Counted from the stretch's first letter, positions 1 to 32,824 are shown. The stretch is DNA of 64,000 bases from an uncultured Bdellovibrionales bacterium (GCA_964624415.1 CAZUWR010000002.1:12454-76453), one strand, 5' to 3'. Numbers and translations are program-made. The notes: a model not told the origin generated them from the sequence alone.

Positions 1-94
1 ATCGCAAGACCATTGGCAGAACCGCCCTTTAAGTAAGACGAAATCCTGCGATTAAATTATTGGGTAAGTATTTACAGTATAACACCTATTCCCA

Positions 95-123
95 ACACAG
101 GGGTAAATTTAATTAATTAATTC
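95..123 (-). repeat. Partial inverted copy of the island repeat family (ACACAGGGGT-AAATTT-TTAATTAATTAAT). It overlaps the 3' end of the P-loop NTPase gene; the TTAATTAATTAA palindrome encodes the C-terminus and stop codon.
   Basis: By eye it aligns to the reverse complement of 8975-9010 (…CCCCTATGCAAT… / TTAATTAATTAA) and of 11070-11100. Confidence 0.5.
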
Positions 124-1398
124 TTTAAGTAGCCCTAACGCTATGTTACTATACAGCCAAGATAGCTTATTTGGAATAATAAAGGTCTTACTCGGTCTTC
201 CAGGATCATCATTTTTTACTCTTATTTCTTCCAGTATGCCAAGCGCAACCATTTCTTTTGCAATCTTTAATGTATATGGCTTGGAATACCCTGATGCTTT
301 CATGAGAGCCTCTATTCCAATCTTTCCATTGTTTTTAATGGCTTCAAGCAAACAGATAGAACGGTTATTCGGCATCGAATCAATGGCTACTCTCAAAATA
401 ACGCCAATATCAGCCCAGTTTATTTTATCTCTCGCTTGGATAATCGCATGTCCGCGAGCAAGGTTATAAAGCCACTGATTTATGCGATCGGGCCGTTCAC
501 ACATCGAAGTTATTTGGTCACCTTGCTCTTGAGTGGTTCCGCGTGACATTGCAAGCATACTAGCTACGATACCAATTGATTCAAGTAATGTCTGGTCTTC
601 ATTTCCAGTTTCCCACTCAATGCCTTTAGGGTGGCTTTCCCAAAGTGTTTTTATAAAATCACCGGTAGCCTCCTTACATGAGCGCTCCTTTTCTCGAACT
701 GGGTTGCGTAATTGATTAGCAAGAGCGGTTGTTGTTTTTTCTGCTGAACGTATCTTTAAGAAGAACAACCGCTGACCAAGGTTCCCCATAGAGCGCCATA
801 CTGCGTTAGAAATCGGCGTAGACGCTCCAAGAAGCATAAAAGGGTATTCTCCTCTATACCCGCGTGATCCATGCACTCCACTGTTCGTTTCTAACCCGCG
901 ACCGTCCATTACCCGAGTTAGTATTCCAAGGAGCATATTGCGATCGTCCTCGCGTTTGGAAAAAACAGGAGCTAGATCGGGCAATATAAGTGTTCGATAC
1001 CGAATACGTGGCAGGAGATCTATTTTTCCCAATTCTGATTCTTTTTTCTTGGCAGAATGAGATACAAAGGAAGCTGGAGTAAAATTATCAACCTGAAGAG
1101 TAACCCCATCCAGATCTGAAAAAAACCCTAAAAGTGTCGTTTTTCCCGATGAAGGCACATCTACATATATAAGTCCGAATGGATTTTGAATATCTTTGAT
1201 TAATAGTTGCGCGATAACACTCAGTCCAATTTCTGTTGCAAGTGTAAGATCCGGAAAATTATCCACTAAAACACCTCGCCACTCATCAAATTGGATGGTT
1301 TTGGTTGGATGTAGCGGAGTGAAGCGGAGATTATTTTGAACTTCTTCAATTTGTTCTTTTTTCTTTGACAATGCTTTTGATAATGGCTTCATACTCAT
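109..1398 (-). CDS. P-loop NTPase with a C-terminal winged-helix-like domain. Possibly a mobile-element replication or regulatory ATPase.
   Basis: Walker A YVDVPSSGKTTLL, then a hydrophobic-Asp stretch (LILPDL). The C-terminal segment ICLLEAIKNNGKIGIEALMKASGYSKPYTLKIAKEMV looks like a wHTH. No specific family is recognised. Confidence 0.35.
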   Translation of the reverse strand: MSMKPLSKALSKKKEQIEEVQNNLRFTPLHPTKTIQFDEWRGVLVDNFPDLTLATEIGLSVIAQLLIKDIQNPFGLIYVDVPSSGKTTLLGFFSDLDGVTLQVDNFTPASFVSHSAKKKESELGKIDLLPRIRYRTLILPDLAPVFSKREDDRNMLLGILTRVMDGRGLETNSGVHGSRGYRGEYPFMLLGASTPISNAVWRSMGNLGQRLFFLKIRSAEKTTTALANQLRNPVREKERSCKEATGDFIKTLWESHPKGIEWETGNEDQTLLESIGIVASMLAMSRGTTQEQGDQITSMCERPDRINQWLYNLARGHAIIQARDKINWADIGVILRVAIDSMPNNRSICLLEAIKNNGKIGIEALMKASGYSKPYTLKIAKEMVALGILEEIRVKNDDPGRPSKTFIIPNKLSWLYSNIALGLLKELIN

Positions 1399-1576
1399 AT
1401 ATTAATAGTTGTAGGAATTAATTTAAGACTACTTTTTAATAGGCTTATAGATGGCGCGCACCAAATTTAATAGCTCCAAAGCACTCTCAAGAGCGACCTC
1501 AGGAGAAAGTTCTTCTCCAAGTTCATCTTTGACTAGTTCAATATACTCTTGTACCTGTGTTTCAGATAACATTGAT

Positions 1577-1822
1577 TTAGATATAAATCCGTGATTTTAA
1601 GTCTTTTTGAATAGCGATAAAACGCTTAGGCTCTACTAAGAGGTGCTCATCAAAAAATTGTTCGACGGTTTTACTTGATTCTTCTGTTTGAGAGAGCACA
1701 AAAACACATCTACGCGGCTCTCGTCGATCTATTTCAATTAATTGATGCCCAAAATACAGCAACACCGCGCACACGTTAAAATCACTTGTTCTCTGCATCA
1801 CCGCTTCTTCATGTATACTCAT
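1577..1822 (-). CDS. Hypothetical small protein
   Basis: 81-codon ORF, co-directional with neighbouring island genes. A hairpin (1831-1851) lies on its upstream side. No recognisable motif. Confidence 0.25.
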   Translation of the reverse strand: MSIHEEAVMQRTSDFNVCAVLLYFGHQLIEIDRREPRRCVFVLSQTEESSKTVEQFFDEHLLVEPKRFIAIQKDLKSRIYI

Positions 1823-1899
1823 AAAATAAAAACTTACGAATTAATCGTAAGTTCATTATAAGGACAATGTATTTTCAAAAAGTGACAACTTAGACCCCT

Positions 1900-2625
1900 T
1901 TATTTTGTCACCGTATTTTTGAGCCTTCTTCTCTTTTGTTTAAGTAAATCGGCAGACTTTTTATCCAAAATGCCCATCTCTTCGTATGATATGTGATCAA
2001 TGTTTTTGTCGCTAAGGTCATTATTAACCACACTCATCGTAATTTTATCGCTACACCCCTCATTAATCTTAACCGCCATTGCGTATTTCCATGGCGCTAA
2101 ATCCTTAATATCTTGCCTTGAGTGAAGTGTTGACTTCGCTTTTCCAAACAGCCTCTCTCTATCACTCTTATGGCACCGCCAAGCAAAAATAAGATCATCA
2201 AGAGTCGTGTTTTTATGAACCTCAAACGTAATGGTTTTTTCTTCTTCATTCACTTGAGCATGCGCATTGAACCGAACCGGTATCAAAACTCCGGTTAAAA
2301 CAAACCTTGTTAAAATAGGGTGCCATTCTTTTCCAAGTCCAAATGCTTTTTTCACCTGGTTTGTTTCTCTGAACAATGCAAGGAATGCTTCTGGATTAGC
2401 TTTCTCAAAGGATTTTGATTGTTGAATGGCCTCCTGCTCGATATTTTGAAACTCTTTTGGATGCTCATGCGCAACTATAGTTTCTCTATCCGATATCCCA
2501 TATTTCTTCCTCAAAGGAATAACATACGACATCAGATCTACCAATCTAGTCGCCACCAAAGCTTCCAAAAGGTAAATGGCATTCAAAACAACTTTTTCAT
2601 TATATACATCCATCTTCATTTTCAT
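1900..2625 (-). CDS. Hypothetical protein (241 aa), island gene
   Basis: Clean ORF with no recognisable domain. Confidence 0.4.
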   Translation of the reverse strand: MKMKMDVYNEKVVLNAIYLLEALVATRLVDLMSYVIPLRKKYGISDRETIVAHEHPKEFQNIEQEAIQQSKSFEKANPEAFLALFRETNQVKKAFGLGKEWHPILTRFVLTGVLIPVRFNAHAQVNEEEKTITFEVHKNTTLDDLIFAWRCHKSDRERLFGKAKSTLHSRQDIKDLAPWKYAMAVKINEGCSDKITMSVVNNDLSDKNIDHISYEEMGILDKKSADLLKQKRRRLKNTVTK

Positions 2626-2881
2626 TAATTTCCTCTATTATACCTTATTATTGATTTTAAGCAGGAAATGGTATACATTTAAGGTGGACTCACATTTACA
2701 ATTTTATCCTAATACTAGGCTTTTTTGCCTATTTTCATACCCATTTGTGTTTTGTAGCGGGCGCCTCCGATGCACGCAAATGGGAAAACCTTTAGGTAAT
2801 TCTGTAAGTGTGAGTCCCGTCGGGGCGTCCACTTTAGGTGAATAGACTACGCTTCGACGACTTAATCTTTAAGTCGTTTTT

Positions 2882-4180
2882 ATGTTAAAGAGAATAGTAA
2901 TTATTTCATTGTTTTTATTTTTTCCTCTATCCTCCTATGCCTCTGATAATAGGCTTTTAGATGGGTTTGATAAATGGGAAGCGGAGCAGAATAAAAAAGT
3001 AACAGTAATCCAACCTAGCAATGTTGAACAAAATAGTGTACAGCCCATACTGTATAGGAATGATGATTATAAATTCAGAATAAAATTCCCAGATGGATGG
3101 GAAATGAAGGATGGTGATGGACAGCATGTGGTTAAAAAGGCTGTAAAAGATAATAGCACCATCCTTATCCTTGTGAGGGAGTTTTCGGATTTCTTAGGTG
3201 ATGCTGGAAAAGACTCATTATCGCCGAAGGACATATCTGATCTTAATTCTGCCGAGTCCAACGATCTTTCTGATGAAGAAATCAATGTATTTCTAGAATC
3301 AATAGCAACCGGACAGCTCGAGGCTTTTCCTGGAAGCACCGTTCTAGAAAAAGGTATCCGCTATATTGATAATAGAAAGGCGGTTTACGTCAAGACGAAT
3401 CAGGTGTATAAGGTGCAAAATATGCAAGTAGAAGGTGTCTCGATAAACTATTTTACTCTCCATAAAGGAAAACTCTATCAAATTGGAGGATTTTATCCAA
3501 CAATACCCATAAATGAAACAGCTAAAGAAAGCATCATAAATACATCATTATCAACTTTTGTCTTTGAGAATTGGGATGATACAAAAAATGCTGTAAATGA
3601 AATAACATCCAATTCTGCTAATGAGGCACTTGGAGATTCGTATGGTAAAAACCTGAATGGGTTAGGGTTATCATTAACTATCATTTTAAGCATTCTTTTC
3701 ACTTGGGGATTGGGATTAATTATCCCTCTATTATTGCGATTTGTTTTTCTAAAAAGGCATCTTTCTGTTGAAATGGCATTATCTGTAGTTGCAGCCGTTT
3801 ACTTTATTCAATTAATAGGTTCTCTTGCGTTGGATAGCAAAAGTAAAAGCCATAGCGCATTACTTTTAGTTGCTTTTATATCCTATAGAATCATGAGGAA
3901 AGGCTCTATAGATAAGGAATCATCAAGAGAAATCCCTCATCCAAAAGTTGAATCCATAAAATATACCGCTAATAAAGAGCTGAGTTTATGGCATTCAAGA
4001 CTTGCGAATGTTATTTTAGTGCTTGTTGTACCAGTAGGCTGGATAGCATTTTTTGTTAGTGATGGGGGTGAATCTCGATATATTCCAATACTACCGCTGC
4101 TTATCGCATTGTCTGATCTCGCTGTATGGATTTTGTATAAAGCTATTCTTTACGTTATTTACGGATATCAAAAAAGGTAG
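2882..4180 (+). CDS. Secreted/membrane hypothetical protein
   Basis: N-terminal signal peptide (MLKRIVIISLFLFFPLSSYAS), a central soluble region and several C-terminal TM helices. Confidence 0.5.
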   Translation: MLKRIVIISLFLFFPLSSYASDNRLLDGFDKWEAEQNKKVTVIQPSNVEQNSVQPILYRNDDYKFRIKFPDGWEMKDGDGQHVVKKAVKDNSTILILVREFSDFLGDAGKDSLSPKDISDLNSAESNDLSDEEINVFLESIATGQLEAFPGSTVLEKGIRYIDNRKAVYVKTNQVYKVQNMQVEGVSINYFTLHKGKLYQIGGFYPTIPINETAKESIINTSLSTFVFENWDDTKNAVNEITSNSANEALGDSYGKNLNGLGLSLTIILSILFTWGLGLIIPLLLRFVFLKRHLSVEMALSVVAAVYFIQLIGSLALDSKSKSHSALLLVAFISYRIMRKGSIDKESSREIPHPKVESIKYTANKELSLWHSRLANVILVLVVPVGWIAFFVSDGGESRYIPILPLLIALSDLAVWILYKAILYVIYGYQKR

Positions 4181-4232
4181 TTTTAAAAAATGCTAATGCT
4201 AGCATGCTTAATTTTATTAAATCTACAATGAT

Positions 4233-4832
4233 ATGTTCGGTATTTTTCTGCAAAAAAACAAAGTGGTGTTACTTACGGCTATCATAGCATCCGTAATAAC
4301 CGCAGGCGCTTCATTGAGCTATGCCGCTATAAAGAACAAGAAAGAGGCTTCTGATCGAAAAATTGAAGCGCTACAGAAATCAATAGAGGACTTACAGATG
4401 AAAAATGAGCAATCTGCTAAGGCTGAAGAGCCTGAAAAGATAAGTATTGAAGCTGTTCAGCAAGCCGAAACATCCGAGATTGCTAGTCAAAAGAAAGTAA
4501 CTGGCAACAAAATTCTGGAATCCACCTCAGAAAAAACTCAACCAAAAGATACTGTTAAAGACGAACCGCTCGTAAAGTGCCTCTCTTATGATGGTAGCGT
4601 AGCTGAATTGAGCGCAAATGATTGTGAAATATTGAAGCAATCTAATGCAGTATTCGAAAAGATTGTAGATGAATACAAAAAATGCGTTTCTGACGCGGAA
4701 AACAGATTCCAGGATCGCCTAAACACGGGGTATGATTCATCAATGGTTACTGCTTACAATAAAACAGCGCAAGCATGTGCACTTGAAAGGAATAACCAAG
4801 TCAACAAATTTCAAAAAAACTTTAAAAAATAA
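4233..4832 (+). CDS. Membrane-anchored coiled-coil hypothetical protein
   Basis: N-terminal TM segment (VVLLTAIIASVITAGASLSYAAI) followed by a charged coiled-coil-like region. Confidence 0.45.
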   Translation: MFGIFLQKNKVVLLTAIIASVITAGASLSYAAIKNKKEASDRKIEALQKSIEDLQMKNEQSAKAEEPEKISIEAVQQAETSEIASQKKVTGNKILESTSEKTQPKDTVKDEPLVKCLSYDGSVAELSANDCEILKQSNAVFEKIVDEYKKCVSDAENRFQDRLNTGYDSSMVTAYNKTAQACALERNNQVNKFQKNFKK

Positions 4833-4927
4833 TAAAACAACCGGTCTGGTATGCGCACAGTATCCAACCAGAACCAGCCAATATGTATCCAATCACAACT
4901 AGTTAATGCTCATCAAGCTTACACCAT

Positions 4928-7900
4928 TCAATCCCAACGAAAATCGCGTATATCTGTATCAATATCCTCACGCTTGGCATCGCTTTCATAATTTTCCGCC
5001 ATTTTTCGAAGCATTCTCGCGGCACGAGGCCACTTCACTTTCAGAGCATCACCCATTTTTTTGTACTTCTCTGCCAGAGCTCTTTCTTGCTCTCCTCCGG
5101 CATCCAGGGATCGCGAAACCACTCCTCGGCTATTGAACAAGCCGGTTTGAATATGACTCTCTATGACTTCGCTTTTAAGTTTCTCAAGGAGATCCCTCAC
5201 AGCCTCATGAGGCCAGTGTCCGTCACTGCCAATGGGAGCGTTGGCAAGCATAAGACCAATTTGAATATCTCCCCCGGTCACATACTTTTTTGAAGCACAT
5301 TCTTCTCTTGCTGCCTCAATCCACTTCGAGAATTCTTTTTCGTTGAAAGATCCGTCCTTTTGGACTCCCGGAACAAGGTGCCAGGAATAGAGTACCTCCC
5401 GGGCGTTCTTCGCCAAAAAAGGAGAGGTCTCCCTCTTTTTCTTCGTTGGACTGGAAATTTGATCATCTTGCTTATAGACATAAGAAATAAGCTCAACAAA
5501 GAATAAATAGTCTTTTTGGAGGAGGCGATGAACAGCTAATGATGAACCGTGTTTTTCAAAACTATGGAAAAATGCTGCAAAAGGCCACTCTAACTTCATT
5601 ATTTCCTCCAGAGAAAGCTCATCTCTCTCCTGGAGCTGTCTAAATATATTTCCAAGATGATACTCATCCAAGGAGCCTCTTCTAAAATCCTTATGTTTAG
5701 AATCAACCAGTAAGACATCCTGCAGTAATCGCTGGAGCAGAGTACTTGGCAGAGATATTCTATGATCGCCGGCTATAGAGAGCGCGGAAAAGGGTCTTTT
5801 GGCGTCGAGGAGTTTTTCAACTGCAAAAGCCGTGTCTTCGATACTATCACCCTGAAAATATCCCGTAGCGTGATCCCAGTACGCGGCTTCTACTTCACTA
5901 CCACGAGCACCCACAAGAGACCACGTGGCTCTGCTTGAAGGTAAGCCTGAGTACAACAGCGCCTCGCGATCTGCAGTGTAGTTCCCTTTGGCCTTTATTC
6001 TTTTGGCCTGCTTCTCGATCCATTTTTGATCAGTGGCTTGTATTCTCCCTTGGGCATAACTTTCAAGCAGCATCGGATGTTTATTGGAGACACCGAGTAT
6101 TGCGTCCAGGACAGCACTGTCTTCTTTTTCATCTCGGATGATTTTTCCAAGTGCCTGCCCGAAAACACCCTGATATGAAATTTCACAGGCGTATTTGATG
6201 ATCTTTTTCAGCGTAACCTTATCCAAAATCTCACGCATTGCTTTCTCTCTGGCTTTGGTGATCGCCACGGTTTTTTCATCGTATTCCTTTGAATCTCCCT
6301 CTGGCAGTTCTGGCCAGGGATTATTTACTAGCCACCCCAGTCTTTCTAATGTATCTTTCGGGGTAATTTTTTCCAGTACTCGATTCAGTGCAGGAAGAAA
6401 CTTTTTTATTTCTCCATCGCCGTAGGTGTTGATCCAGTGCAGCGTGTCCCGGGTATTTTTAAAAAGCTCCGAAACTTTCTCTTTTGGAAGACTTTTGAGG
6501 CTTTCTTTTTCAATTACCTCCAGAAGATGTTCTCGTATTTCTATGGGAAGTCGGATAAAGTCATCCATCGAAGTTGCCAAGTTTTCCTCCGCAGATGCAA
6601 CATCAATCATTCGCGGGAATAAACCTTTGCTATATTCCTGGTCTTCTGCTCCATTTTCTCGCTCAAGCCCGCGTCTTGGATTGCCGGTCTCTCGCCACCG
6701 GAAGCGGTGTGATTCACTGAAGCTTTCGGGACTGAAATAGCCTTTAGCAAAATCCCAAGTTAACTTCGGGTTCTGTGATACAAGTTTTTCAAATACCCCA
6801 ATTCGCTCTTGGGGCGTGGAACAAGTTTGTGGATATGCTGGCCGGAAAATATCCTTCAGGCTATTCAGAGGCCGATTACTATAACCTCTGCCCTGATCAA
6901 TCTGAGCCAGCTTTAAAAGGATGTCTGCAGAATCCCCTAAATACTCTGAGTCCCAAGCTGTGGATTCAAGAGCCCAAAGCAATCCTGAATGCTTACACTC
7001 GCCGAAAATACCACCTTCGTCCTTCATTAATTCTTTAAATACATCTGGTCGAGTTTCTATAGCCCTCGCCAGACCCTGCAGAAAAGCGTCCGGAGCCGCC
7101 TCAGCGAGAAGGGGGGTCATATCTGAGAGTGACGCCCAGACCTCCCAAGTACTGGCTCTGGTTAAAACTTCCTCTACGATTCTATCGGCGAATGCCTGTG
7201 AGGAGGAGATATGAGGGCAATGATCACTGTGAACTGCTAAGAGTACAAGAGATTCGACCAGTCCGGTTTGTATCCACCCAGAATACGGGCTGACTTTTCC
7301 ATACACAGCTGCAGCCCAACGCTTCTCTACTGCTAGACGGTACTTCGGATCAGTCTTGGTAAGTATCGAAAGAAGGGACGTCTTAAAAAGTTTCAGAAAG
7401 CTTTCGCTAAGATGCGAAGCAAGAAGTTCCCAGGTATCGAGCGGTGCTTTAATCATCCATACGCTTCCCGATTTTCTGATAGGCGTGTCATCCACCCTAA
7501 GAAGCTTTTCTAGTTTCTTGGAATATTCCTCATATTTTAATCCAGAAAGAGTTTCCAATATACGACGATCTCCCTCCTTGTTTTCATCCCAAGAGCCCGC
7601 GAACAATGCAGGAAAGAGAAGATCTGTTTTATCGGGAGCTGCCCACGCAGGTTGGCTTGCGCTTGTGGAAGAAAGCTGGCGATGAAGAACCGGGATGCTT
7701 CGTCCAAAATCTCTGGCCAGTTTCTGAGACTGCACTCCAGACACTCCGTTTTCTAAAAACTTCTTTTCTATTACGTTCCGTTTTGGCCGTGAAAGCCTTA
7801 TTACTTTGCCGTGCAGATCAATTGATTGTGCGTCTGCTGTTAGGAAGACGTGATGGCCATTCTTAACGGCGAGATCAGCAGCGTTTCTACAATCAGCAGG

Positions 7901-8707
7901 CGCGACAATTATGAGATTTTTAAAGTTCGCACTACAGTCTTTAAATTGTTGAATATTTTCTACTACTACACATCGAGAAAATGCTCGAAGTTTGTCTGTT
8001 TCAGAAAGCTCAGTAAGAGCAGCGTACAAAAATGCGCTAGGCTCTTCTGGAGAATCCCCCTGCACTTCTAACAACTCAGGAATACCCACTACCCATTGAT
8101 GGATACGGGCAACTTCGATTGCTCGACCACCAATTACAACGGCCGGGGCGATTTCCGGACTGGTTCCTGCTGCCCACTCTTCCCAGAAACCTTCAATGTC
8201 CTGAATGCCTCCAGAGAGCCCTTTAATTTGGCGAGCTAGCCACAGAGCTACTGCGGGTGTAGCTGAAAGCCAAGACACAAGCTTATCAACAGCAATAACT
8301 TTCACATCAGCCCACTCATAAGTAGCCTTCTTCTTGGCTTCCCAGTTCGTCCTGTCTTTCCAGGGGCGTGGAGTAACAAAAATGAAAGTCGTACTTTGAG
8401 GATCTATCCCCAATGGATTTTTTGTCCGTTTCGTGTAATCATCCTCAGCCTTTTTCCCTGGATTAGCTCCCGTCCCGATTTCCCAGACCGACTCTCCTGC
8501 AGGAAAAAAGCGCGAGCCAGAAGAGGATCGCAGATGGCCATCCCAGCCTCCGATTGCCGTGTTGTCACCACTCGGGAAGTCTATCTCTTCGATAGATGCT
8601 GAGCTGGCCAATATCAAACGACTAAGAAGCTGAGGCAGAGTAGTCTCGCAGTCTTTTTTCTTCCCTGTCAGCCAGGTTTTTATGTCACCAGAATCTATCC
8701 AAATCAT
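4928..8707 (-). CDS. Very large (1259 aa) hypothetical protein with no recognisable NTPase or nuclease motif. Candidate defense/accessory function.
   Basis: Uninterrupted 3.78-kb ORF. I found no Walker A, DEAD/DExH, HxH or YxDD motifs by eye. The C-terminal third is predicted helical/repeat-like. Confidence 0.6.
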   Translation of the reverse strand: MIWIDSGDIKTWLTGKKKDCETTLPQLLSRLILASSASIEEIDFPSGDNTAIGGWDGHLRSSSGSRFFPAGESVWEIGTGANPGKKAEDDYTKRTKNPLGIDPQSTTFIFVTPRPWKDRTNWEAKKKATYEWADVKVIAVDKLVSWLSATPAVALWLARQIKGLSGGIQDIEGFWEEWAAGTSPEIAPAVVIGGRAIEVARIHQWVVGIPELLEVQGDSPEEPSAFLYAALTELSETDKLRAFSRCVVVENIQQFKDCSANFKNLIIVAPADCRNAADLAVKNGHHVFLTADAQSIDLHGKVIRLSRPKRNVIEKKFLENGVSGVQSQKLARDFGRSIPVLHRQLSSTSASQPAWAAPDKTDLLFPALFAGSWDENKEGDRRILETLSGLKYEEYSKKLEKLLRVDDTPIRKSGSVWMIKAPLDTWELLASHLSESFLKLFKTSLLSILTKTDPKYRLAVEKRWAAAVYGKVSPYSGWIQTGLVESLVLLAVHSDHCPHISSSQAFADRIVEEVLTRASTWEVWASLSDMTPLLAEAAPDAFLQGLARAIETRPDVFKELMKDEGGIFGECKHSGLLWALESTAWDSEYLGDSADILLKLAQIDQGRGYSNRPLNSLKDIFRPAYPQTCSTPQERIGVFEKLVSQNPKLTWDFAKGYFSPESFSESHRFRWRETGNPRRGLERENGAEDQEYSKGLFPRMIDVASAEENLATSMDDFIRLPIEIREHLLEVIEKESLKSLPKEKVSELFKNTRDTLHWINTYGDGEIKKFLPALNRVLEKITPKDTLERLGWLVNNPWPELPEGDSKEYDEKTVAITKAREKAMREILDKVTLKKIIKYACEISYQGVFGQALGKIIRDEKEDSAVLDAILGVSNKHPMLLESYAQGRIQATDQKWIEKQAKRIKAKGNYTADREALLYSGLPSSRATWSLVGARGSEVEAAYWDHATGYFQGDSIEDTAFAVEKLLDAKRPFSALSIAGDHRISLPSTLLQRLLQDVLLVDSKHKDFRRGSLDEYHLGNIFRQLQERDELSLEEIMKLEWPFAAFFHSFEKHGSSLAVHRLLQKDYLFFVELISYVYKQDDQISSPTKKKRETSPFLAKNAREVLYSWHLVPGVQKDGSFNEKEFSKWIEAAREECASKKYVTGGDIQIGLMLANAPIGSDGHWPHEAVRDLLEKLKSEVIESHIQTGLFNSRGVVSRSLDAGGEQERALAEKYKKMGDALKVKWPRAARMLRKMAENYESDAKREDIDTDIRDFRWD

Positions 8708-8791
8708 AATCTTTTTCTTTTAAAGATACCTCTTTCCACGTTTAAGTAATTATCCTAAGGAAAGAACTATGTGTCAAAATTGCCTTATGCT

Positions 8792-8821
8792 CATCAAACC
8801 AGAACCAACCGATCTCCAAAG
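8792..8821 (+). repeat. Partial extra copy of the 5' arm of the island repeat (TCATCAAACCAGAACCAACC…)
   Basis: About 80% match to 8944-8973. Confidence 0.3.
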
Positions 8822-8940
8822 ACTTCAACTTTTCTATATCATCCAAACCCCAAAAGTATATTTCATGCCCATTGATCATAGTGAGAAGGTATTTGATCTC
8901 TTTTACTGAAATATAAAGCAAAAAGATGGTTTGAATTTGC

Positions 8941-9090
8941 ATATCATCGAACCAGAACTAACCTACTTCTCATTAATTAATTAACAAATTCAACCCCTAT
9001 GCAATACCCCCCAGTAAAATGGTTCGAACTTCATTGACCATCGAGATCCAAGAATGGAAACGGTCTCGAAAGAAGCTATTTTTGTTTTAT
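8941..9090 (+). repeat. Island repeat copy A, immediately downstream of the RT stop codon
   Basis: ATATCATCGAACCAGAACTAACC…TTAATTAATTAAC…CCCCTATG…GGTTCGAACTTCATTGACCATCGAG…CTATTTTTGTTTTATTTAAG. It aligns at about 75% identity with 11037-11200. Confidence 0.6.
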
Positions 9091-9095
9091 TTAAG

Positions 9096-10067
9096 CTACT
9101 TTCTATATTTTTCAACATAGTTTTTATAACGATTCATGGCTTTCTTTCTAGATGAAAATGTTTTTCTATCCTGAGAAGATGGGTTGGCATTAAGAAGGTC
9201 TTTAATCTTCTTTTTCTTCGCTCTTGCTTTTATTCCTACAGCCAAACTGTCGCGACGTAAGTCAATCCCGACATAATGCATCCCGTCCCTATGAGATCGG
9301 ATACTTGTCTTTTTTTCATTTATTCTGAGTGGTTGATTAGGATCAGCCTCAGCCAATAATTTCACAATTTCATTTCTCAGCTCTTCCATTGCTTTCTTGA
9401 AAACATGACTAGCCGTGATACCAATATCATCGACATAAATAGCTATTCTTGGGTCATGTCCTTTGAGCCTCTTTAAAACAAGATTTCGCAACTTCAGGAA
9501 TAAGTTAAGATTGCACCAAACGGCTAGTCGCGGGGATGTAGCAAAGCCCCTTGCAATGGTCATGATGGGTCCACCAGAGCCCTTGGGGCCCAAAGGGACA
9601 CAACAGAGCCTGGTGAGGATTTTAGAAGCTCTGGGGCTACATCCGCACATTCGTTTGAAAAAGAACTCGACCCTGGAGCTCTCAACTTGCTCGAAAAATC
9701 GTCTTAGGTCAAGTTTTAGCATATGCCGCCTCATCTTTGATCCCAAAAGCTCCCTGGCCGCCATCACATGATCTCTTTTTTTAAGACCTCCGAAAATAAA
9801 AAATGGCACCAAATTATCATGAGGCGCCAAAACCAATGCATTTATTTTTCGATGTAGTTTCTTAAGATTCTTCCCTGAAGCATTTCGAATATACTTGCCT
9901 TTTTTCAACTCAGAACTAGCGCTATCTTTCCAGTATGAATCGAGATTTAAAAGACAGTCATTTATCAAATCAAGGGCTTCCTTCGAAGGAAAGTCTTTGT
10001 GGCTAATATGCTTCGCAAGCTCATTTTTACTTTTTATGAAAAGCTTCGGATAAATTGACTTTGACAT
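9096..10067 (-). CDS. Reverse transcriptase, retron-like (fingers-palm only, 323 aa)
   Basis: RT motifs in order: FIFGGLKKRDHVMAARELL…LKLDLRRFFEQV (motifs 2/A), ARGFATSPRLAVWCNLNL (retron-type PQGxxxSPxLxN), IAIYVDDIGI (YxDD catalytic box), INEKKTSI (motif 6), HYVGIDL (retron VTG-like). There is no RNase H, maturase or endonuclease domain. Confidence 0.85.
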   Translation of the reverse strand: MSKSIYPKLFIKSKNELAKHISHKDFPSKEALDLINDCLLNLDSYWKDSASSELKKGKYIRNASGKNLKKLHRKINALVLAPHDNLVPFFIFGGLKKRDHVMAARELLGSKMRRHMLKLDLRRFFEQVESSRVEFFFKRMCGCSPRASKILTRLCCVPLGPKGSGGPIMTIARGFATSPRLAVWCNLNLFLKLRNLVLKRLKGHDPRIAIYVDDIGITASHVFKKAMEELRNEIVKLLAEADPNQPLRINEKKTSIRSHRDGMHYVGIDLRRDSLAVGIKARAKKKKIKDLLNANPSSQDRKTFSSRKKAMNRYKNYVEKYRK

Positions 10068-10383
10068 ACTTTTTCAACCGCTTAGCTCGGTTATAAATAA
10101 GAAGATCTTGCATCTTTTCCCCCCATTCCACCAGAAGTTTTTCCACACCACTTACTCGACCCTTACTTAACTCGGTATCCATGAAAAGAAATGGGGTGAT
10201 AGATGCTGGATGAACATCCATTCGATCGGCAAGTTTCAATAAAAACCCCTTAGAGACTTCTTTCTGTCCAGTCTCAATCATCGCAATAAGGACTGCCGAC
10301 ACATTCAAAGCAGAGGCAAACTCCGCCTGAGTCAAACCAGATTCACTCCTGATTTTCTTAATAAGTTCCGAAAAAGTATACAT
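10027..10383 (-). CDS. XRE-family helix-turn-helix protein whose 3' end overlaps the RT start by 41 nt
   Basis: IRSESGLTQAEFASALNVSAVLIAMIETGQKEVSKGFLLKLADRMDV is a classic XRE/Cro-type HTH. Its stop codon (10027-10029) lies inside the RT ORF (RT start codon at 10065-10067). Confidence 0.75.
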   Translation of the reverse strand: MYTFSELIKKIRSESGLTQAEFASALNVSAVLIAMIETGQKEVSKGFLLKLADRMDVHPASITPFLFMDTELSKGRVSGVEKLLVEWGEKMQDLLIYNRAKRLKKYVKVNLSEAFHKK

Positions 10384-10589
10384 AAAACCACTACGAGACG
10401 ACTACCAATTGATCAAGTCCAGGATGATGCGAACAATCCGAAGGATTGAATACAACATCCGCAAGAACTTTTTCATATTTAGTAGCCGCCTCGCTATACG
10501 AAAGCTTCGATTCAGCAATGAAGAAGTGATTCATAGTGTTTCCATTATAGCTAGGACTGGCTTATTATTATCTTTGTTGCTATTTAGAA

Positions 10590-10880
10590 GCACAAACCAA
10601 CTTCGCCCGACGGTTAAGAGTTTCGAGTGGTAAAAACAGCTTTCGGTAACTATTAAATAACCCGTCGGGCTAATTGATAGGTGCTCTGCAAGTTGAATGT
10701 GCGAAACAAATCACTTACTTCCCAACTCTACCATCCTATCTCTCATCATTATCATGTCCAAACTAGTCCGAATACGACTCGTGATAACCGACGAAATAGG
10801 TTGCTAGGGTCGAGCTCCGCTCAATAAAGAGTGGTCAGATAATTCCTCCAGAGGAACATCTATTATTTTCGATTTTTTAA
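10590..10880. ncRNA. Candidate structured non-coding RNA (possibly the RT-associated ncRNA) in the 0.95-kb ORF-poor stretch upstream of the HTH-RT pair
   Basis: A perfect 9-bp GC-rich stem GCCCGACGG (10604-10612) pairs with CCGTCGGGC (10662-10670) around a 49-nt loop, in an otherwise AT-rich spacer. A weak hairpin plus T-tract lies at 10844-10880. The only ORF here (10409-10633) is implausible. Confidence 0.3.
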
Positions 10881-11036
10881 CCGTTTTTGATGCGTGAATC
10901 ATTTGTTAAGCAACAGTCCTATTCACAATTATATACAAAACGTATAACTCCTGTCAAGCTTCCACTCCAGCAGAGACTTATTCAAAGTAGACAATATCTT
11001 CCCAATTAAGACTGTTCTTATGTGACAGGAAAATAT

Positions 11037-11200
11037 ATATCATCGAACCAAAACCAACCTATTTTTTATTAATTAACACATTCAGCCCCTGTGTAACACT
11101 CTCCATTTCCCCCATATTTTCCACCAAAAGAGTTCGAACTTCGTTGACTACCGAGCTCACATATCAAAAAAGTGACTATCTAAGTCTCTTTTTGTTAATT
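11037..11200 (+). repeat. Island repeat copy B, upstream of the DUF4238-like gene
   Basis: ATATCATCGAACCAAAACCAACC…TTAATTAACAC…CCCCTGTG…AGTTCGAACTTCGTTGACTACCGAG…CTCTTTTTGTTAATTTGCAG. Confidence 0.6.
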
Positions 11201-11342
11201 TGCAGAATTACACTGAAATCTAAACCTGAGTGCGGTTAGTACCGTTTCGATGTTATCTAGTCTAGAGCCAAACTAAATAAAAATGATTAACACTTTTTTA
11301 TAAAATACTACACTAAAATAATTCTTCGCCATCTTTAAACCT

Positions 11343-12350
11343 ATGGCTCAAGGAAAACCAAAAGATCATTATGTGCCACAGTTTTATCTAGACGCTTTTG
11401 CTATAGAGGGTCCGGGAAAGAAACGATCTCATATATACCAATATATGGACAAGCAAGTAGTTTCTTCAAGAATAAGTGATGTTGCTAGTGAAAAAGATTA
11501 CTACACCTTTATACTAGATGAGGAAGATAAGAATACTGTCACTAGAGATGTTGATGATTTTTTTACAAATATAGAGGCTTCAGCAGCACCAGTGATTCAG
11601 CGGATTATAAAAGAAGAAAGTTTGGACATTACTAAAGAAGAAAGGGGATGGGTAGCTGTCTTTTTTTCGACATTAGCTGTACGTACACCAGGCTTTCTTA
11701 ATCTAGCGCAAGCACTACATGGTACTGCAATAAAAGAAATTGGTATAGCTGGAGCAGTGAATAAAGAAGTTCTAGCTGAGGATGTAAGGCGAGCAGGAAT
11801 GACAATTGATGAAAAACAACTTAATAACCTTCATAATTTTGTTATGAAGGGGGACTACGATATTACTTTTTCTAAAAAATCAAAGTCGTATTTTGTTGCT
11901 ACAGGGCTTAAAGACGCAAAAAATCTATCCAATATGTATTTTGAAAAGTTCTGGCATCTACTATTGGTAAATGGAAAAACTCCACTCTTAACCTCAGATA
12001 ATCCGGTTTCTCTTTATAGACCAAAATACATACCGGCCATATATAATGCTGGTTATGGTAATGGGGTCATAGTGATACCTCTTTCACCTAATGTAGCCAT
12101 ATTAATGAGAGAAAAACCTCTTCGAAAAGAAATTTCTCATATTAACGAATATATGGTAAGACGTCTCAATCAGAATACAATCCGTTTCTCTAATGAGTTT
12201 GTTTTTGGAAATCTACACATTCCCCAACTTGAGAAGCTTTTTAATAAAACACCAAAAAAGGCACACCAAAAGGTAAAAGCAACAAGAATAAAATGGACTC
12301 CATACACAGTTATGAGTACGGGCGTTATCCCGGAAGAATTTATAAAATAA
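11343..12350 (+). CDS. DUF4238-family-like protein (N-terminal HYVPQFYL signature)
   Basis: The N-terminus KDHYVPQFYLDAFA matches the HxVPxxYLxxF hallmark I associate with DUF4238 proteins (the family appears near defense/abortive-infection genes). 335 aa. Confidence 0.5.
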   Translation: MAQGKPKDHYVPQFYLDAFAIEGPGKKRSHIYQYMDKQVVSSRISDVASEKDYYTFILDEEDKNTVTRDVDDFFTNIEASAAPVIQRIIKEESLDITKEERGWVAVFFSTLAVRTPGFLNLAQALHGTAIKEIGIAGAVNKEVLAEDVRRAGMTIDEKQLNNLHNFVMKGDYDITFSKKSKSYFVATGLKDAKNLSNMYFEKFWHLLLVNGKTPLLTSDNPVSLYRPKYIPAIYNAGYGNGVIVIPLSPNVAILMREKPLRKEISHINEYMVRRLNQNTIRFSNEFVFGNLHIPQLEKLFNKTPKKAHQKVKATRIKWTPYTVMSTGVIPEEFIK

Positions 12351-12443
12351 TCCTGACTGTTTGTTGTTTCCGACTCTAATGAAAAATGTTTCTATAATAA
12401 TTACATCCTTTATACAGGTAACGTAACTAAGAAATGTAATATA

Positions 12444-19235: not shown

Positions 19236-19455
19236 TTCCTTTGATTATACCATGAGTAACTCTTTTACATCTCACCGCCATAAACATCTCAGAAGGGGAG
19301 AACTTTAGGGCTTGCCGGAAAAATAGTGTGTATTTTCGCTGCAAATCGTTTATCGCGTGTCAACATATATCCATATGCCTTCGTGCGATAAAGCGATTTT
19401 CGCTGAAAATTCATACTATTTTTCTCGACATGAGATGTAAAAGAGTTACTCAAAC
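19236..19455. repeat. About 200-bp nested inverted-repeat (long hairpin) element between gyrA and the tRNA
   Basis: Outer arms ATGAGTAACTCTTTTACATCTCA (19241-19263) and TGAGATGTAAAAGAGTTACTCA (19428-19449) are perfect reverse complements. The inner pair is TATTTTCGCTGCAAATCG / CGATTTTCGCTGAAAATTCATA. Confidence 0.6.
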
Positions 19456-32398: not shown

Positions 32399-32824
32399 AT
32401 GGGACATTCCTCTCAAAAAAGCCTCGGTTACGCTTTATCTCAACTCAATCGGCTGTGGAATCAACGCTTTATGGAGAAATTGCGTGCCCAAGGGTACTAC
32501 AATCTCAAACCATCGTTTTGCGTTGTATTTATACCTCTTTTTGAAAATGACGGTCAAAGTGCATCAGATCTTGCTCGCGAAGCGAAGATAAGCAAACAAA
32601 CTATGAGTATCTATGCTCATGAATTGAGACAGCGCGGGTATATCAAAATGGTTCAAGATACCACGGACAAAAGAGTATACCGGATTTTTCTCACTGCTAA
32701 GGGGTCACTCCTCCATAAGGTATTCGAATCAACACAGCATTCTATCAGTCAGGAACTCTGCGGACACCTTCTTGCTTCAGAAGCAGCTGAGCTTTCACGG
32801 ATTTTAGAAAAATGCTTTAAATAA
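32399..32824 (+). CDS. MarR-family transcriptional regulator
   Basis: A winged HTH of MarR type (…ASDLAREAKISKQTMSIYAHELRQRGYIKMVQDTTDKRVYRIFLTAKG…). Confidence 0.7.
   Translation: MGHSSQKSLGYALSQLNRLWNQRFMEKLRAQGYYNLKPSFCVVFIPLFENDGQSASDLAREAKISKQTMSIYAHELRQRGYIKMVQDTTDKRVYRIFLTAKGSLLHKVFESTQHSISQELCGHLLASEAAELSRILEKCFK

Follow-up and report, generated by a model that had tools for sequence, protein, structure and literature searches.

The window, the 64,000-nucleotide (nt) stretch of DNA analysed here, belongs to a genome of the Patescibacteria (candidate phyla radiation, CPR) and starts inside an accessory island in which blocks of genes are set apart by long, diverged repeats. Read from window position 1, the island comprises a gene for a P-loop NTPase (109-1398, minus strand), an open reading frame (ORF) of 1259 amino acids (4928-8707, minus), the repeat RepA (8941-9103), a type VI retron (9096-10957, minus) and the repeat RepB (11037-11200), next to which lies a DUF4238 module (11161-12424, plus). 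Beyond position 1, 162 nt past the NTPase gene, lies the gene for a large serine recombinase (LSR) of 534 amino acids, whose stop codon overlaps the 3' end of a tRNA-Gly(gcc) gene. Most probably, the repeats are attachment-site (att) junctions of integrative elements that were inserted by an LSR at the 3' end of tRNA-Gly and were built up by site-specific tandem accretion.

The repeat family

RepA and RepB are diverged direct repeats. A repeat search of the window returns two gapless blocks, 8960-9013 against 11052-11105 (76% identity) and 9011-9048 against 11121-11158 (79%), and global alignment of 8941-9103 with 11037-11215 gives 123 matches in 187 columns. A first-pass annotation of the window had described both repeats and the order of their sub-motifs correctly, ending RepA at 9090; the repeat reaches ~9103. 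The two further partial copies that it listed are likewise non-random. The 20-mer GGTTRGTTYTGGTTYGATGA occurs three times, always on the minus strand (8791-8810, 8944-8963 and 11040-11059; 0.01 expected), and the first of these is the 20-nt core of the supposed fourth copy. The pattern TTAATTAA-N(1-12)-CCCCTRTG also has three matches (96-120 minus, 8977-9001 plus and 11069-11093 plus; 0.01 expected); it was built from RepA and RepB, so that only the match at 96-120 is a genuine test. This last copy (TTAATTAATTAA-ATTTA-CCCCTGTG, minus strand) is inverted relative to RepA and RepB, has a stretch of only ~27 nt in common with them and appears to be related to them. It overlaps the stop of the NTPase gene and, as had been recognised, its TTAATTAATTAA encodes the C-terminal KELIN and the stop codon of the ORF at 109-1398 (minus). 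The inverted 25-nt copy was not found upstream of the LSR gene in other members of the LSR family and is specific to this element.

The same annotation had made palindromes, above all one with stop codons in all six frames, the key feature of the family. The 12-mer TTAATTAATTAA is exact only at 109 and 8973 (8973-8984 in RepA); RepB reads TTATTAATTAA (11065-11076), which has one mismatch and hence no six-frame stop, and the homologous copy in a related genome (L012) reads GTTAATTG at this position. The palindrome is thus present at two sites, is not conserved across the family and lies ~80 nt away from the crossover point described below; we regard it as incidental, together with the second palindrome, GTTCGAAC, which is part of a half-site. 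No repeat motif occurs outside the island within the 64-kb window, and neither ARAGORN nor Rfam finds a tRNA or known RNA in the repeats.

Anatomy of a repeat

When all copies are aligned by anchoring on the sequence (T)GAGC, every copy has, in the minus-strand reading, AACAAAAA, a hairpin and then ~10 nt to the left of this core. To the right of it, GTCAAYGAWGTTCGAAC is found in RepA, RepB, a third repeat (RepC) on the metagenomic contig L006, L012 and an internal site of the homologous island L048. Each repeat is a composite of a terminator-like arm, the core (T)GAGC (GCTCA on the plus strand), a half-site P', a spacer, TTAATTAA and a 20-mer derived from the phage terminase TerL. The portion after P' (spacer, TTAATTAA and 20-nt TerL fragment, with the cargo next) belongs to this lineage only. 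At the half-site position where all copies have GTCAAYGAWGTTCGAAC, tRNA-Gly sequence (GAGTAACGGGAGTCGAACCC) stands in the real attR, and GTTCGAAC is therefore part of a half-site that loosely mimics the acceptor/T-arm region of tRNA-Gly; by eye, ~13 of 20-22 positions of P' match the tRNA-Gly 3' region. With such a match and with ARAGORN and Rfam blank at the repeats, an actual tRNA gene fragment was rejected.

In RepA, the TerL-derived 20-mer (core A) forms the cargo-side edge (8944-8963, minus); the spacer (..CATAGGGG..GGGGGG..) occupies 8985-9021 (minus) and the half-site P'(A), TCGATGGTCAATGAAGTTCGAAC, 9022-9044 (minus), where it marks the left end of module M1. The crossover core of RepA is decayed and reads GATCCA (9045-9050), equivalent to GCTCAC in the anchored alignment. 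In RepB, the corresponding 20-mer (core B) lies at the cargo-side edge (11040-11059, minus), followed by TTATTAATTAA and the spacer (11065-11131, minus), the half-site P'(B), TCGGTAGTCAACGAAGTTCGAAC, at 11132-11154 (minus), which is the left end of module M2, and the crossover core GCTCA (11155-11159), at which the LSR island of this genome ends on the right. The 5-mer GCTCA is identical at the tRNA-Gly end, the island's other boundary, and GCTCA(C) is common to RepB, RepC, L012 and the LSR/tRNA junction.

In the live element, the outer arm is the final ~50 nt of the LSR gene itself, and the outer arms of RepA and RepC are LSR coding sequence. The RepA arm (9049-9103, minus), which forms the right end of M2 and carries a terminator-like hairpin and TTTTTGTT, is 78% identical to the final 55 nt of the LSR gene, and its translation, ESSLNKTKIASFETVSILGS, agrees by our own count at 13 of 20 residues with ESSLDKTKTAFSEAVSVLVSE, the C-terminus of the live LSR up to its stop. 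The RepB arm (11160-11200, plus) consists of a hairpin, AAAAAGTGACT-ATCTA-AGTCTCTTTTT, and then GTTAATTT; in form it matches the terminator after tRNA-Gly in island-free relatives, and it could be either the native attB arm or the P-relic of an older DUF4238 module. The CT(A/C)TTTTTGTT motif of the repeats is the T-run of a terminator of the kind that directly follows tRNA-Gly in these relatives.

The recombinase and the tRNA-Gly boundary

The cognate recombinase that the first-pass annotation had proposed to look for is present just beyond the window start, on contigs that extend the window past position 1 (L001-L003). The LSR gene lies at 8881-10485 of L002, outside the window, and its product has Resolvase, Recombinase and Zn_ribbon_recom domains. 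The tRNA-Gly gene that its stop codon overlaps is followed by genes for tRNA-Met, tRNA-Phe, tRNA-Val and tRNA-Leu and by rplS. The protein has only distant NCBIfam matches, to XisF and CcrA/B/C, with 76, 74 and 66 bits for CcrB, CcrC and CcrA, where the cut-offs are 900, 900 and 700. No Phage_integrase match was found among the island ORFs, and the sole recombinase of the island is this serine recombinase. The boundary of the island is formed by the 3' end of tRNA-Gly, which lies ~1.65 kb outside the window; the island does continue past the window start, as had been suggested, and the inverted copy at 96-120 is not its boundary.

The 5' leader of the LSR gene reaches into the window, where its distal part occupies positions 1-95 (minus); a hairpin with a possible pseudoknot is conserved upstream of the LSR in four different elements. 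The structured region extends from window 1-~80 (minus) into L002 8745-8870, with counterparts at ~9880-9990 of L045, ~9885-9990 of L047/L048 and ~480-600 of L051. Its outer stem of 14 bp has ~6 double compensatory changes between lineages, and its inner stem of 9-10 bp is different in all four elements and complementary every time. The sequence CAGAACCGTCCTTTTRGTA, immediately 3' of the hairpin, is able to pair with the invariant loop CTTACTnnAnGGGCGGTTCTGC, as a pseudoknot or an alternative fold, and L051 carries a compensating change in this pairing. No Rfam family matches the leader.

Polymorphism at the crossover core

Presence/absence polymorphism at the junctions, a check that the first-pass annotation had put forward, is found exactly inside RepB. 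Contig L006 (Joint Genome Institute, JGI; 216 kb) is 100% identical to the window from 11159 back to 1, and L007 (Logan) from 11159 back to 8799; both depart from the window exactly after GAGC in RepB and continue past the core with an HD-domain gene and then the third site, RepC. The arrangements of the window and L006 are interconvertible only by exchange at the RepB core, which means that this internal site has been in use. L006 opens with the same 77 nt that close the LSR gene ahead of its stop-codon region, as far as GTGAGC, and P'(C) comes next. L003 terminates exactly at GTGAGC and the start of L007 lies 30 nt earlier, so that, taken together with L006, the assembly graph forks at the crossover core. 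By their contig ends and overlaps, L003 and L007 close a circle of ~13.5 kb, and an attP-like junction of the LSR 3' end with P'(C) can be deduced from contig ends in two datasets. Sequence identity at this junction is 100%, compared with ~70-78% for the older relic arms, a contrast that would speak for an excised circle, or else for a tandem copy of very recent origin, more than for an old scar.

A further arrangement is found in L012, a related genome with 93% nt identity in the HSP20 region, where the order is HSP20 terminator, GAGC, P', spacer, TTAATT and then other cargo. Window 11071-11160, with P'(B) and the core included, is 88% identical to L012, and the cargo differs past TTAATT. L012 has neither the TerL core nor the DUF4238 gene, and nothing separates its HSP20 terminator from the crossover core. 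On its left, the DUF4238 module begins within a few nt of the core position of L012, and this boundary shows no recognisable P'; the module may be an older accreted one whose P' has decayed. For the other side of the L006 island, an exact-copy look-up of HSP20 and the 3D-domain protein gave only the window's own contig and L012.

Island-free relatives and the LSR family

Scanning metagenomes for the tRNA-Gly 3' end gave 17 contigs. Three of them (L030, L033 and L040) have the same tRNA-Gly and an rplS product with 92-93% amino acid identity, and L036 has the tRNA-Gly downstream sequence of L033. Island-free relatives thus exist: in L033, L036 and L040, a hairpin and T-run terminator directly follows tRNA-Gly and there is no LSR, while L030 ends at the tRNA. 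The distance from tRNA-Gly to the 3D-domain gene is 1.9 kb in L036, compared with ~16.5 kb in the genome of the window.

Homologues of the LSR are numerous (2143 at E<=1e-20) and are annotated as Moranbacteria, Parcubacteria or Patescibacteria. All six homologue loci that were inspected end inside tRNA-Gly (four gcc, one tcc and one cut by the contig end). The five loci besides this island have differing cargo, partly for defence: HpaII restriction-modification (RM) with Vsr, PIN-TPR, AbiEii, SNase and type III-like RM. L048 has an internal P-like-GAGC-GTCAATGATGTTAGAAC site, and L052 has a tyrosine integrase beside the LSR. A gene of 437-467 amino acids adjoins the LSR, or lies one gene away, in two homologous islands (L045 and L049).

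Several side observations concern these islands. Of the homologous islands L045, L048 and L049, the first two have a DUF5659 gene and small ORFs upstream of the LSR, and L049 has an additional DnaG-type zinc-ribbon protein; the distal cargo of the three is swapped (RM with Vsr, PIN-TPR-GreABC, AbiEii, SNase and DUF4238-SEC-C). The breakpoint between L047 and L048 adjoins an rve transposase and was set aside as uninformative on att sites.

A scan of the genome collection for P' gave 14 hits, 12 of them apparently random; the other two place the motif beside tRNA-Gly(tcc) in two Patescibacteria metagenome-assembled genomes, L024 and L025. P' of L025 contains the tRNA 3' end as a direct repeat (TTTGTGCGGG); in L024, part of the tRNA 3' end is present as a separate copy. 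In both, parts of the 3' end of tRNA-Gly(tcc) are duplicated in tandem (L024 6290-6580, with an exact repeat of 21 nt, and L025 2500-3080), and each duplication is preceded by a terminator hairpin and encloses one small gene or, at the partial copy of L024, ~170 nt of non-coding DNA; they look like possible scars of the same kind with no recombinase. No match to the P' motif, the spacer motif or the 24-mer arm turned up in scans of viral collections. An inverted match between 8909-8939 and 32500-32530 falls in an unrelated ORF (32399-32824; by eye from its sequence, and with no search behind the label, we take it to be a MarR-like regulator) and was treated as chance.

A model of tandem accretion

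Integration of an element, its decay to a cis-mobilizable element and a new integration in the attR beside the target gene form an established three-step model (PMC5704250 section 2.3), and modular excision is known as well (PMC4057263). Its application to this island draws on the anatomy of the repeats, the adjacent LSR, the exact breakpoints, the island-free relatives and the family-wide association with tRNA-Gly. From these sequences we infer the order of events and catalysis by this LSR. A first element would have integrated at tRNA-Gly and decayed to the recombinase-less type VI retron module M2, keeping only ~55 nt of the 3' end of its LSR gene. A second, intact element, M1, which runs from the giant ORF to the NTPase and LSR genes, would then have integrated into the junction beside the tRNA and created the hybrid junction RepA from the M2 LSR relic and the P' of M1. 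RepA has the parts that tandem accretion predicts, namely an LSR 3' relic, a core and P'(A), with the decayed module free of a recombinase. In this genome, RepB would be attL, the outer junction of the composite, and in L006 a further hybrid junction, with the HD module. The opposite junction, attR, would lie 1.65 kb past the window start, where the LSR 3' end joins tRNA-Gly. The composite would still move as a unit, recombining at exactly these cores. The proposals of the first-pass annotation that the repeats sit at module boundaries, are recombination sites of the attL/attR type and record a modular assembly of the island are borne out on this account.

Several points weigh against tandem accretion by the LSR. 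Canonical LSRs recombine attP with attB, not attP with attR, and accretion therefore needs an attR outer arm that is attB-like; the outer arms do resemble each other, a likeness that might suffice. Island-free genomes come from more distant relatives, no empty site having been found in the same species, and the sequence downstream of their tRNA resembles the outer arm of the window in form only. The circular junction is deduced from contig ends and overlaps, not from reads, and a tandem second copy would look alike. By eye, the P and P' half-sites have no convincing dyad symmetry. L024 and L025 have no LSR near the P' motif and would need to be relics. Finally, the model leaves unexplained the inverted copy at 96-120, and also the TerL 20-mer directly after TTAATTAA in RepA and RepB.

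Other origins of the repeats

The repeats might instead be conserved flanks of a hotspot, with cassettes swapped by homologous recombination between diverged copies and with the LSR uninvolved. RepA and RepB are similar over ~150 nt, far above the ~50 bp needed for an LSR site, and the cargo of L012 changes at TTAATT and not at the crossover core, so that this junction needs another process. Nevertheless, the breakpoint between L006 and the window, the end of L003 and the LSR/tRNA junction coincide at one and the same core of 5 nt, and the arms on one side of the core are only ~60% alike and thus a poor substrate for homologous recombination. Given also the relic of an LSR gene in RepA and the location of every inspected family member at tRNA-Gly, we consider this origin improbable.

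Slightly less probable still is that unrelated elements, such as those with tyrosine integrases, duplicated the native 3' end of tRNA-Gly with its terminator, and that the repeats are what decay has left of these copies, unconnected to the LSR. Such an origin would suit the loose likeness of P' to the T-arm/acceptor region and of the outer arms to the native terminator, the tRNA-end repeats of L024 and L025 with no LSR nearby, and the tyrosine integrase beside the LSR in L052. What it fails to account for is the conservation of GTCAAYGAWGTTCGAAC between elements whose LSRs are ~52% identical and across gcc and tcc targets, despite a match of ~13 of 20-22 positions to the tRNA; this pattern of conservation would fit a protein-binding half-site, not a decaying tRNA copy. 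Moreover, the outer arms of RepA and RepC are derived from LSR coding sequence, and this island has no tyrosine integrase.

That the repeats arose as regulatory punctuation, duplicated with each cassette to provide a terminator, a six-frame stop and an outward promoter, is unlikelier again. The outer arm is indeed a terminator-like hairpin with a T-run, TTAATTAATTAA ends the NTPase ORF and, to our eye, TGTTAATTAAT is similar to an extended -10 box directed towards the cargo. However, punctuation leaves the exact polymorphic breakpoints, the LSR relic and the association with tRNA-Gly unexplained, the cargo has strong promoters downstream of the repeat, and the six-frame stop is not conserved; punctuation is possible as a secondary role, not as the origin. 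Integron attC-like sites or a family of miniature inverted-repeat transposable elements (MITEs), both offered by the first-pass annotation and similar in size (110-160 nt) and in position between cassettes, are barely credible and were rejected on the sequence evidence: folding of both strands of both repeats gives local terminator-type hairpins and no repeat-spanning imperfect hairpin (shuffle z -0.6 to -3.1), the only recombinase is a serine recombinase and not an integron integrase, and there are no terminal inverted repeats or target duplications and no copies beyond the island in the 64 kb.

Terminase fragments and a phage

The 5' arm common to the repeats, ATCATCGAACCA..., is the reverse complement of codons for (E/K)(V/I)GWFWFD(D/E), the Walker-B region of phage TerL. 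The fourth partial copy lies within an ORF of 66 amino acids (8742-8942, minus) that matches Pfam Terminase_3 (E=1.6e-5) and contains a TerL relic (8791-8893, minus; residues ~91-133) with the Walker-B 20-mer (core 1) at 8791-8810. An intact TerL of 468 amino acids is encoded on a phage contig in IMG/VR (L008, IMGVR_UViG_3300020576_003192) from the same metagenome as L006. Window 8791-8893 and L008 5726-5828 have 86% nt identity and 34 of 43 amino acids in common, including an exact match of ~32 nt. The phage homology of the relic ends exactly after GGTTYGATGA, and all three copies of the 20-mer break after GATGA. Through the relic, L008 becomes a candidate phage of a Moranbacteria-like CPR bacterium.

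Logan contigs break at 8799-8826 because this identical stretch of ~32 nt is shared with the co-occurring phage L008 and forks a k=31 graph, and these breaks were rejected as a recombination polymorphism. A pseudo-att site in the TerL core (TCGGT ... GTTCGA) is not claimed: the match of ~18/29 includes a gap and was noticed only after the fact, and the breakpoints do not lie on the side that such a site would require. A group II intron or homing element in TerL, considered in view of the Walker-B motif in the common arm, was also dismissed; the reverse transcriptase (RT) is a type VI retron RT of 323 amino acids, RepB has no RT preceding it, and Rfam finds no intron domains. Speculatively, a Campbell-type crossover with a phage at the 20-mer, followed by deletion, would give core A, TerL(~75-126) and core 1 in this order.

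A wider interpretation, possible though doubtful, takes the LSR family as a cassette platform at tRNA-Gly across Patescibacteria and the TerL 20-mer and the fresher 103-nt relic as a record of recombination between the island and a phage. A single resident LSR would cut out short recombinase-less P-core-P' modules (retron, HD, DUF4238 and others) and insert them again, one at a time or several together, in a manner functionally akin to an integron or to the staphylococcal cassette chromosome (SCC) for defence genes, and the phage would be an infecting one that co-occurs in the same metagenome.

Cargo of the modules

The main cargo of the intact element M1, to whose backbone the NTPase belongs, is the ORF of 1259 amino acids, which has its own near-consensus promoter (8749-8777, minus). 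It has no Pfam, NCBIfam or PADLOC match and is 100% conserved across the four public datasets where it is found. The retron module M2 has overlapping genes for the RT (9096-10067; PADLOC RT_VI 4.5e-29) and a helix-turn-helix (HTH) protein (10027-10383; HTH_VI 2.1e-12), no recombinase gene and a perfect promoter, TTGACA-18-TATAAT (10957-10928, minus). Each of the two cargoes thus has its own strong promoter downstream of a repeat. The retron leader of ~400-550 nt contains the hairpin GCCCGACGG...CCGTCGGGC (~10600-10670) and presumably is the msr/msd non-coding RNA; the contig annotation has an ORF of 47 amino acids inside it. The gene of the DUF4238 module (11343-12350, plus) matches PADLOC DUF4238-Pers (2.8e-12). 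Further along, the interval between tRNA-Arg(cct) and gyrA (19253-19452) has two nested inverted-repeat pairs, with 35-nt arms of 83% and 34-nt arms of 79% complementarity.

Relation to known systems and significance

SCC elements, including SCCmec, use the serine recombinases CcrAB or CcrC, insert at the 3' end of rlmH and have direct repeats between tandem elements. The likeness to the present island extends to a large serine recombinase at the 3' end of a housekeeping gene, to serial modules split by site-bearing direct repeats and to excision alone or together. However, Ccr is only distantly related to the LSR, whose scores do not place the island among the SCC elements, the target is tRNA-Gly and not rlmH, and the repeats, besides their greater length, contain remains of the 3' end of the recombinase gene itself. 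Genomic islands and prophages that target tRNA genes, classically with tyrosine integrases, resemble the island in their insertion at a tRNA 3' end and in the degenerate tRNA-like repeat at the far end; as in these, the element supplies a replacement 3' end, here within the last LSR codons, whereas the identical core is only 5-7 nt. The integrase of PAISt of Streptomyces turgidiscabies is a tyrosine recombinase. As in the present island, internal att core copies of PAISt permit alternative module excision; its att core, a palindrome of 8 bp, lies at the 3' end of bacA, and the host is a different one (PMC4057263). By most reports, elements with serine recombinases interrupt dispensable genes and do not use tRNAs as targets (PMC5704250 section 2.1). 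A parallel in mechanism is found in streptococcal tandems of cis-mobilizable elements with integrative and conjugative or integrative and mobilizable elements, in which, as here, a decayed resident keeps its att sites, a newcomer enters the att site beside the target gene, and internal hybrid att sites delimit modules that can excise as a whole or in sub-sets (PMC5704250 section 2.3). Those tandems mostly have tyrosine integrases and are conjugative elements of Firmicutes, in contrast to an LSR, a patescibacterial host and a retron in the cargo here; no conjugation genes were seen in this island.

The mechanism of site-specific accretion is thus already known and is found here in a little-studied group. 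The mobile elements of Patescibacteria (CPR) are poorly characterised, and genetic tools are missing for most of the group; a widespread LSR family with a likely target, half-site and crossover core gives a testable integrase/att pair for these bacteria. The common terminase fragment would tie a specific IMG/VR phage contig to this bacterium as a candidate host, and the island illustrates how the defence islands of Patescibacteria, with their retron, RM, abortive infection (Abi) and other systems, are assembled and moved.

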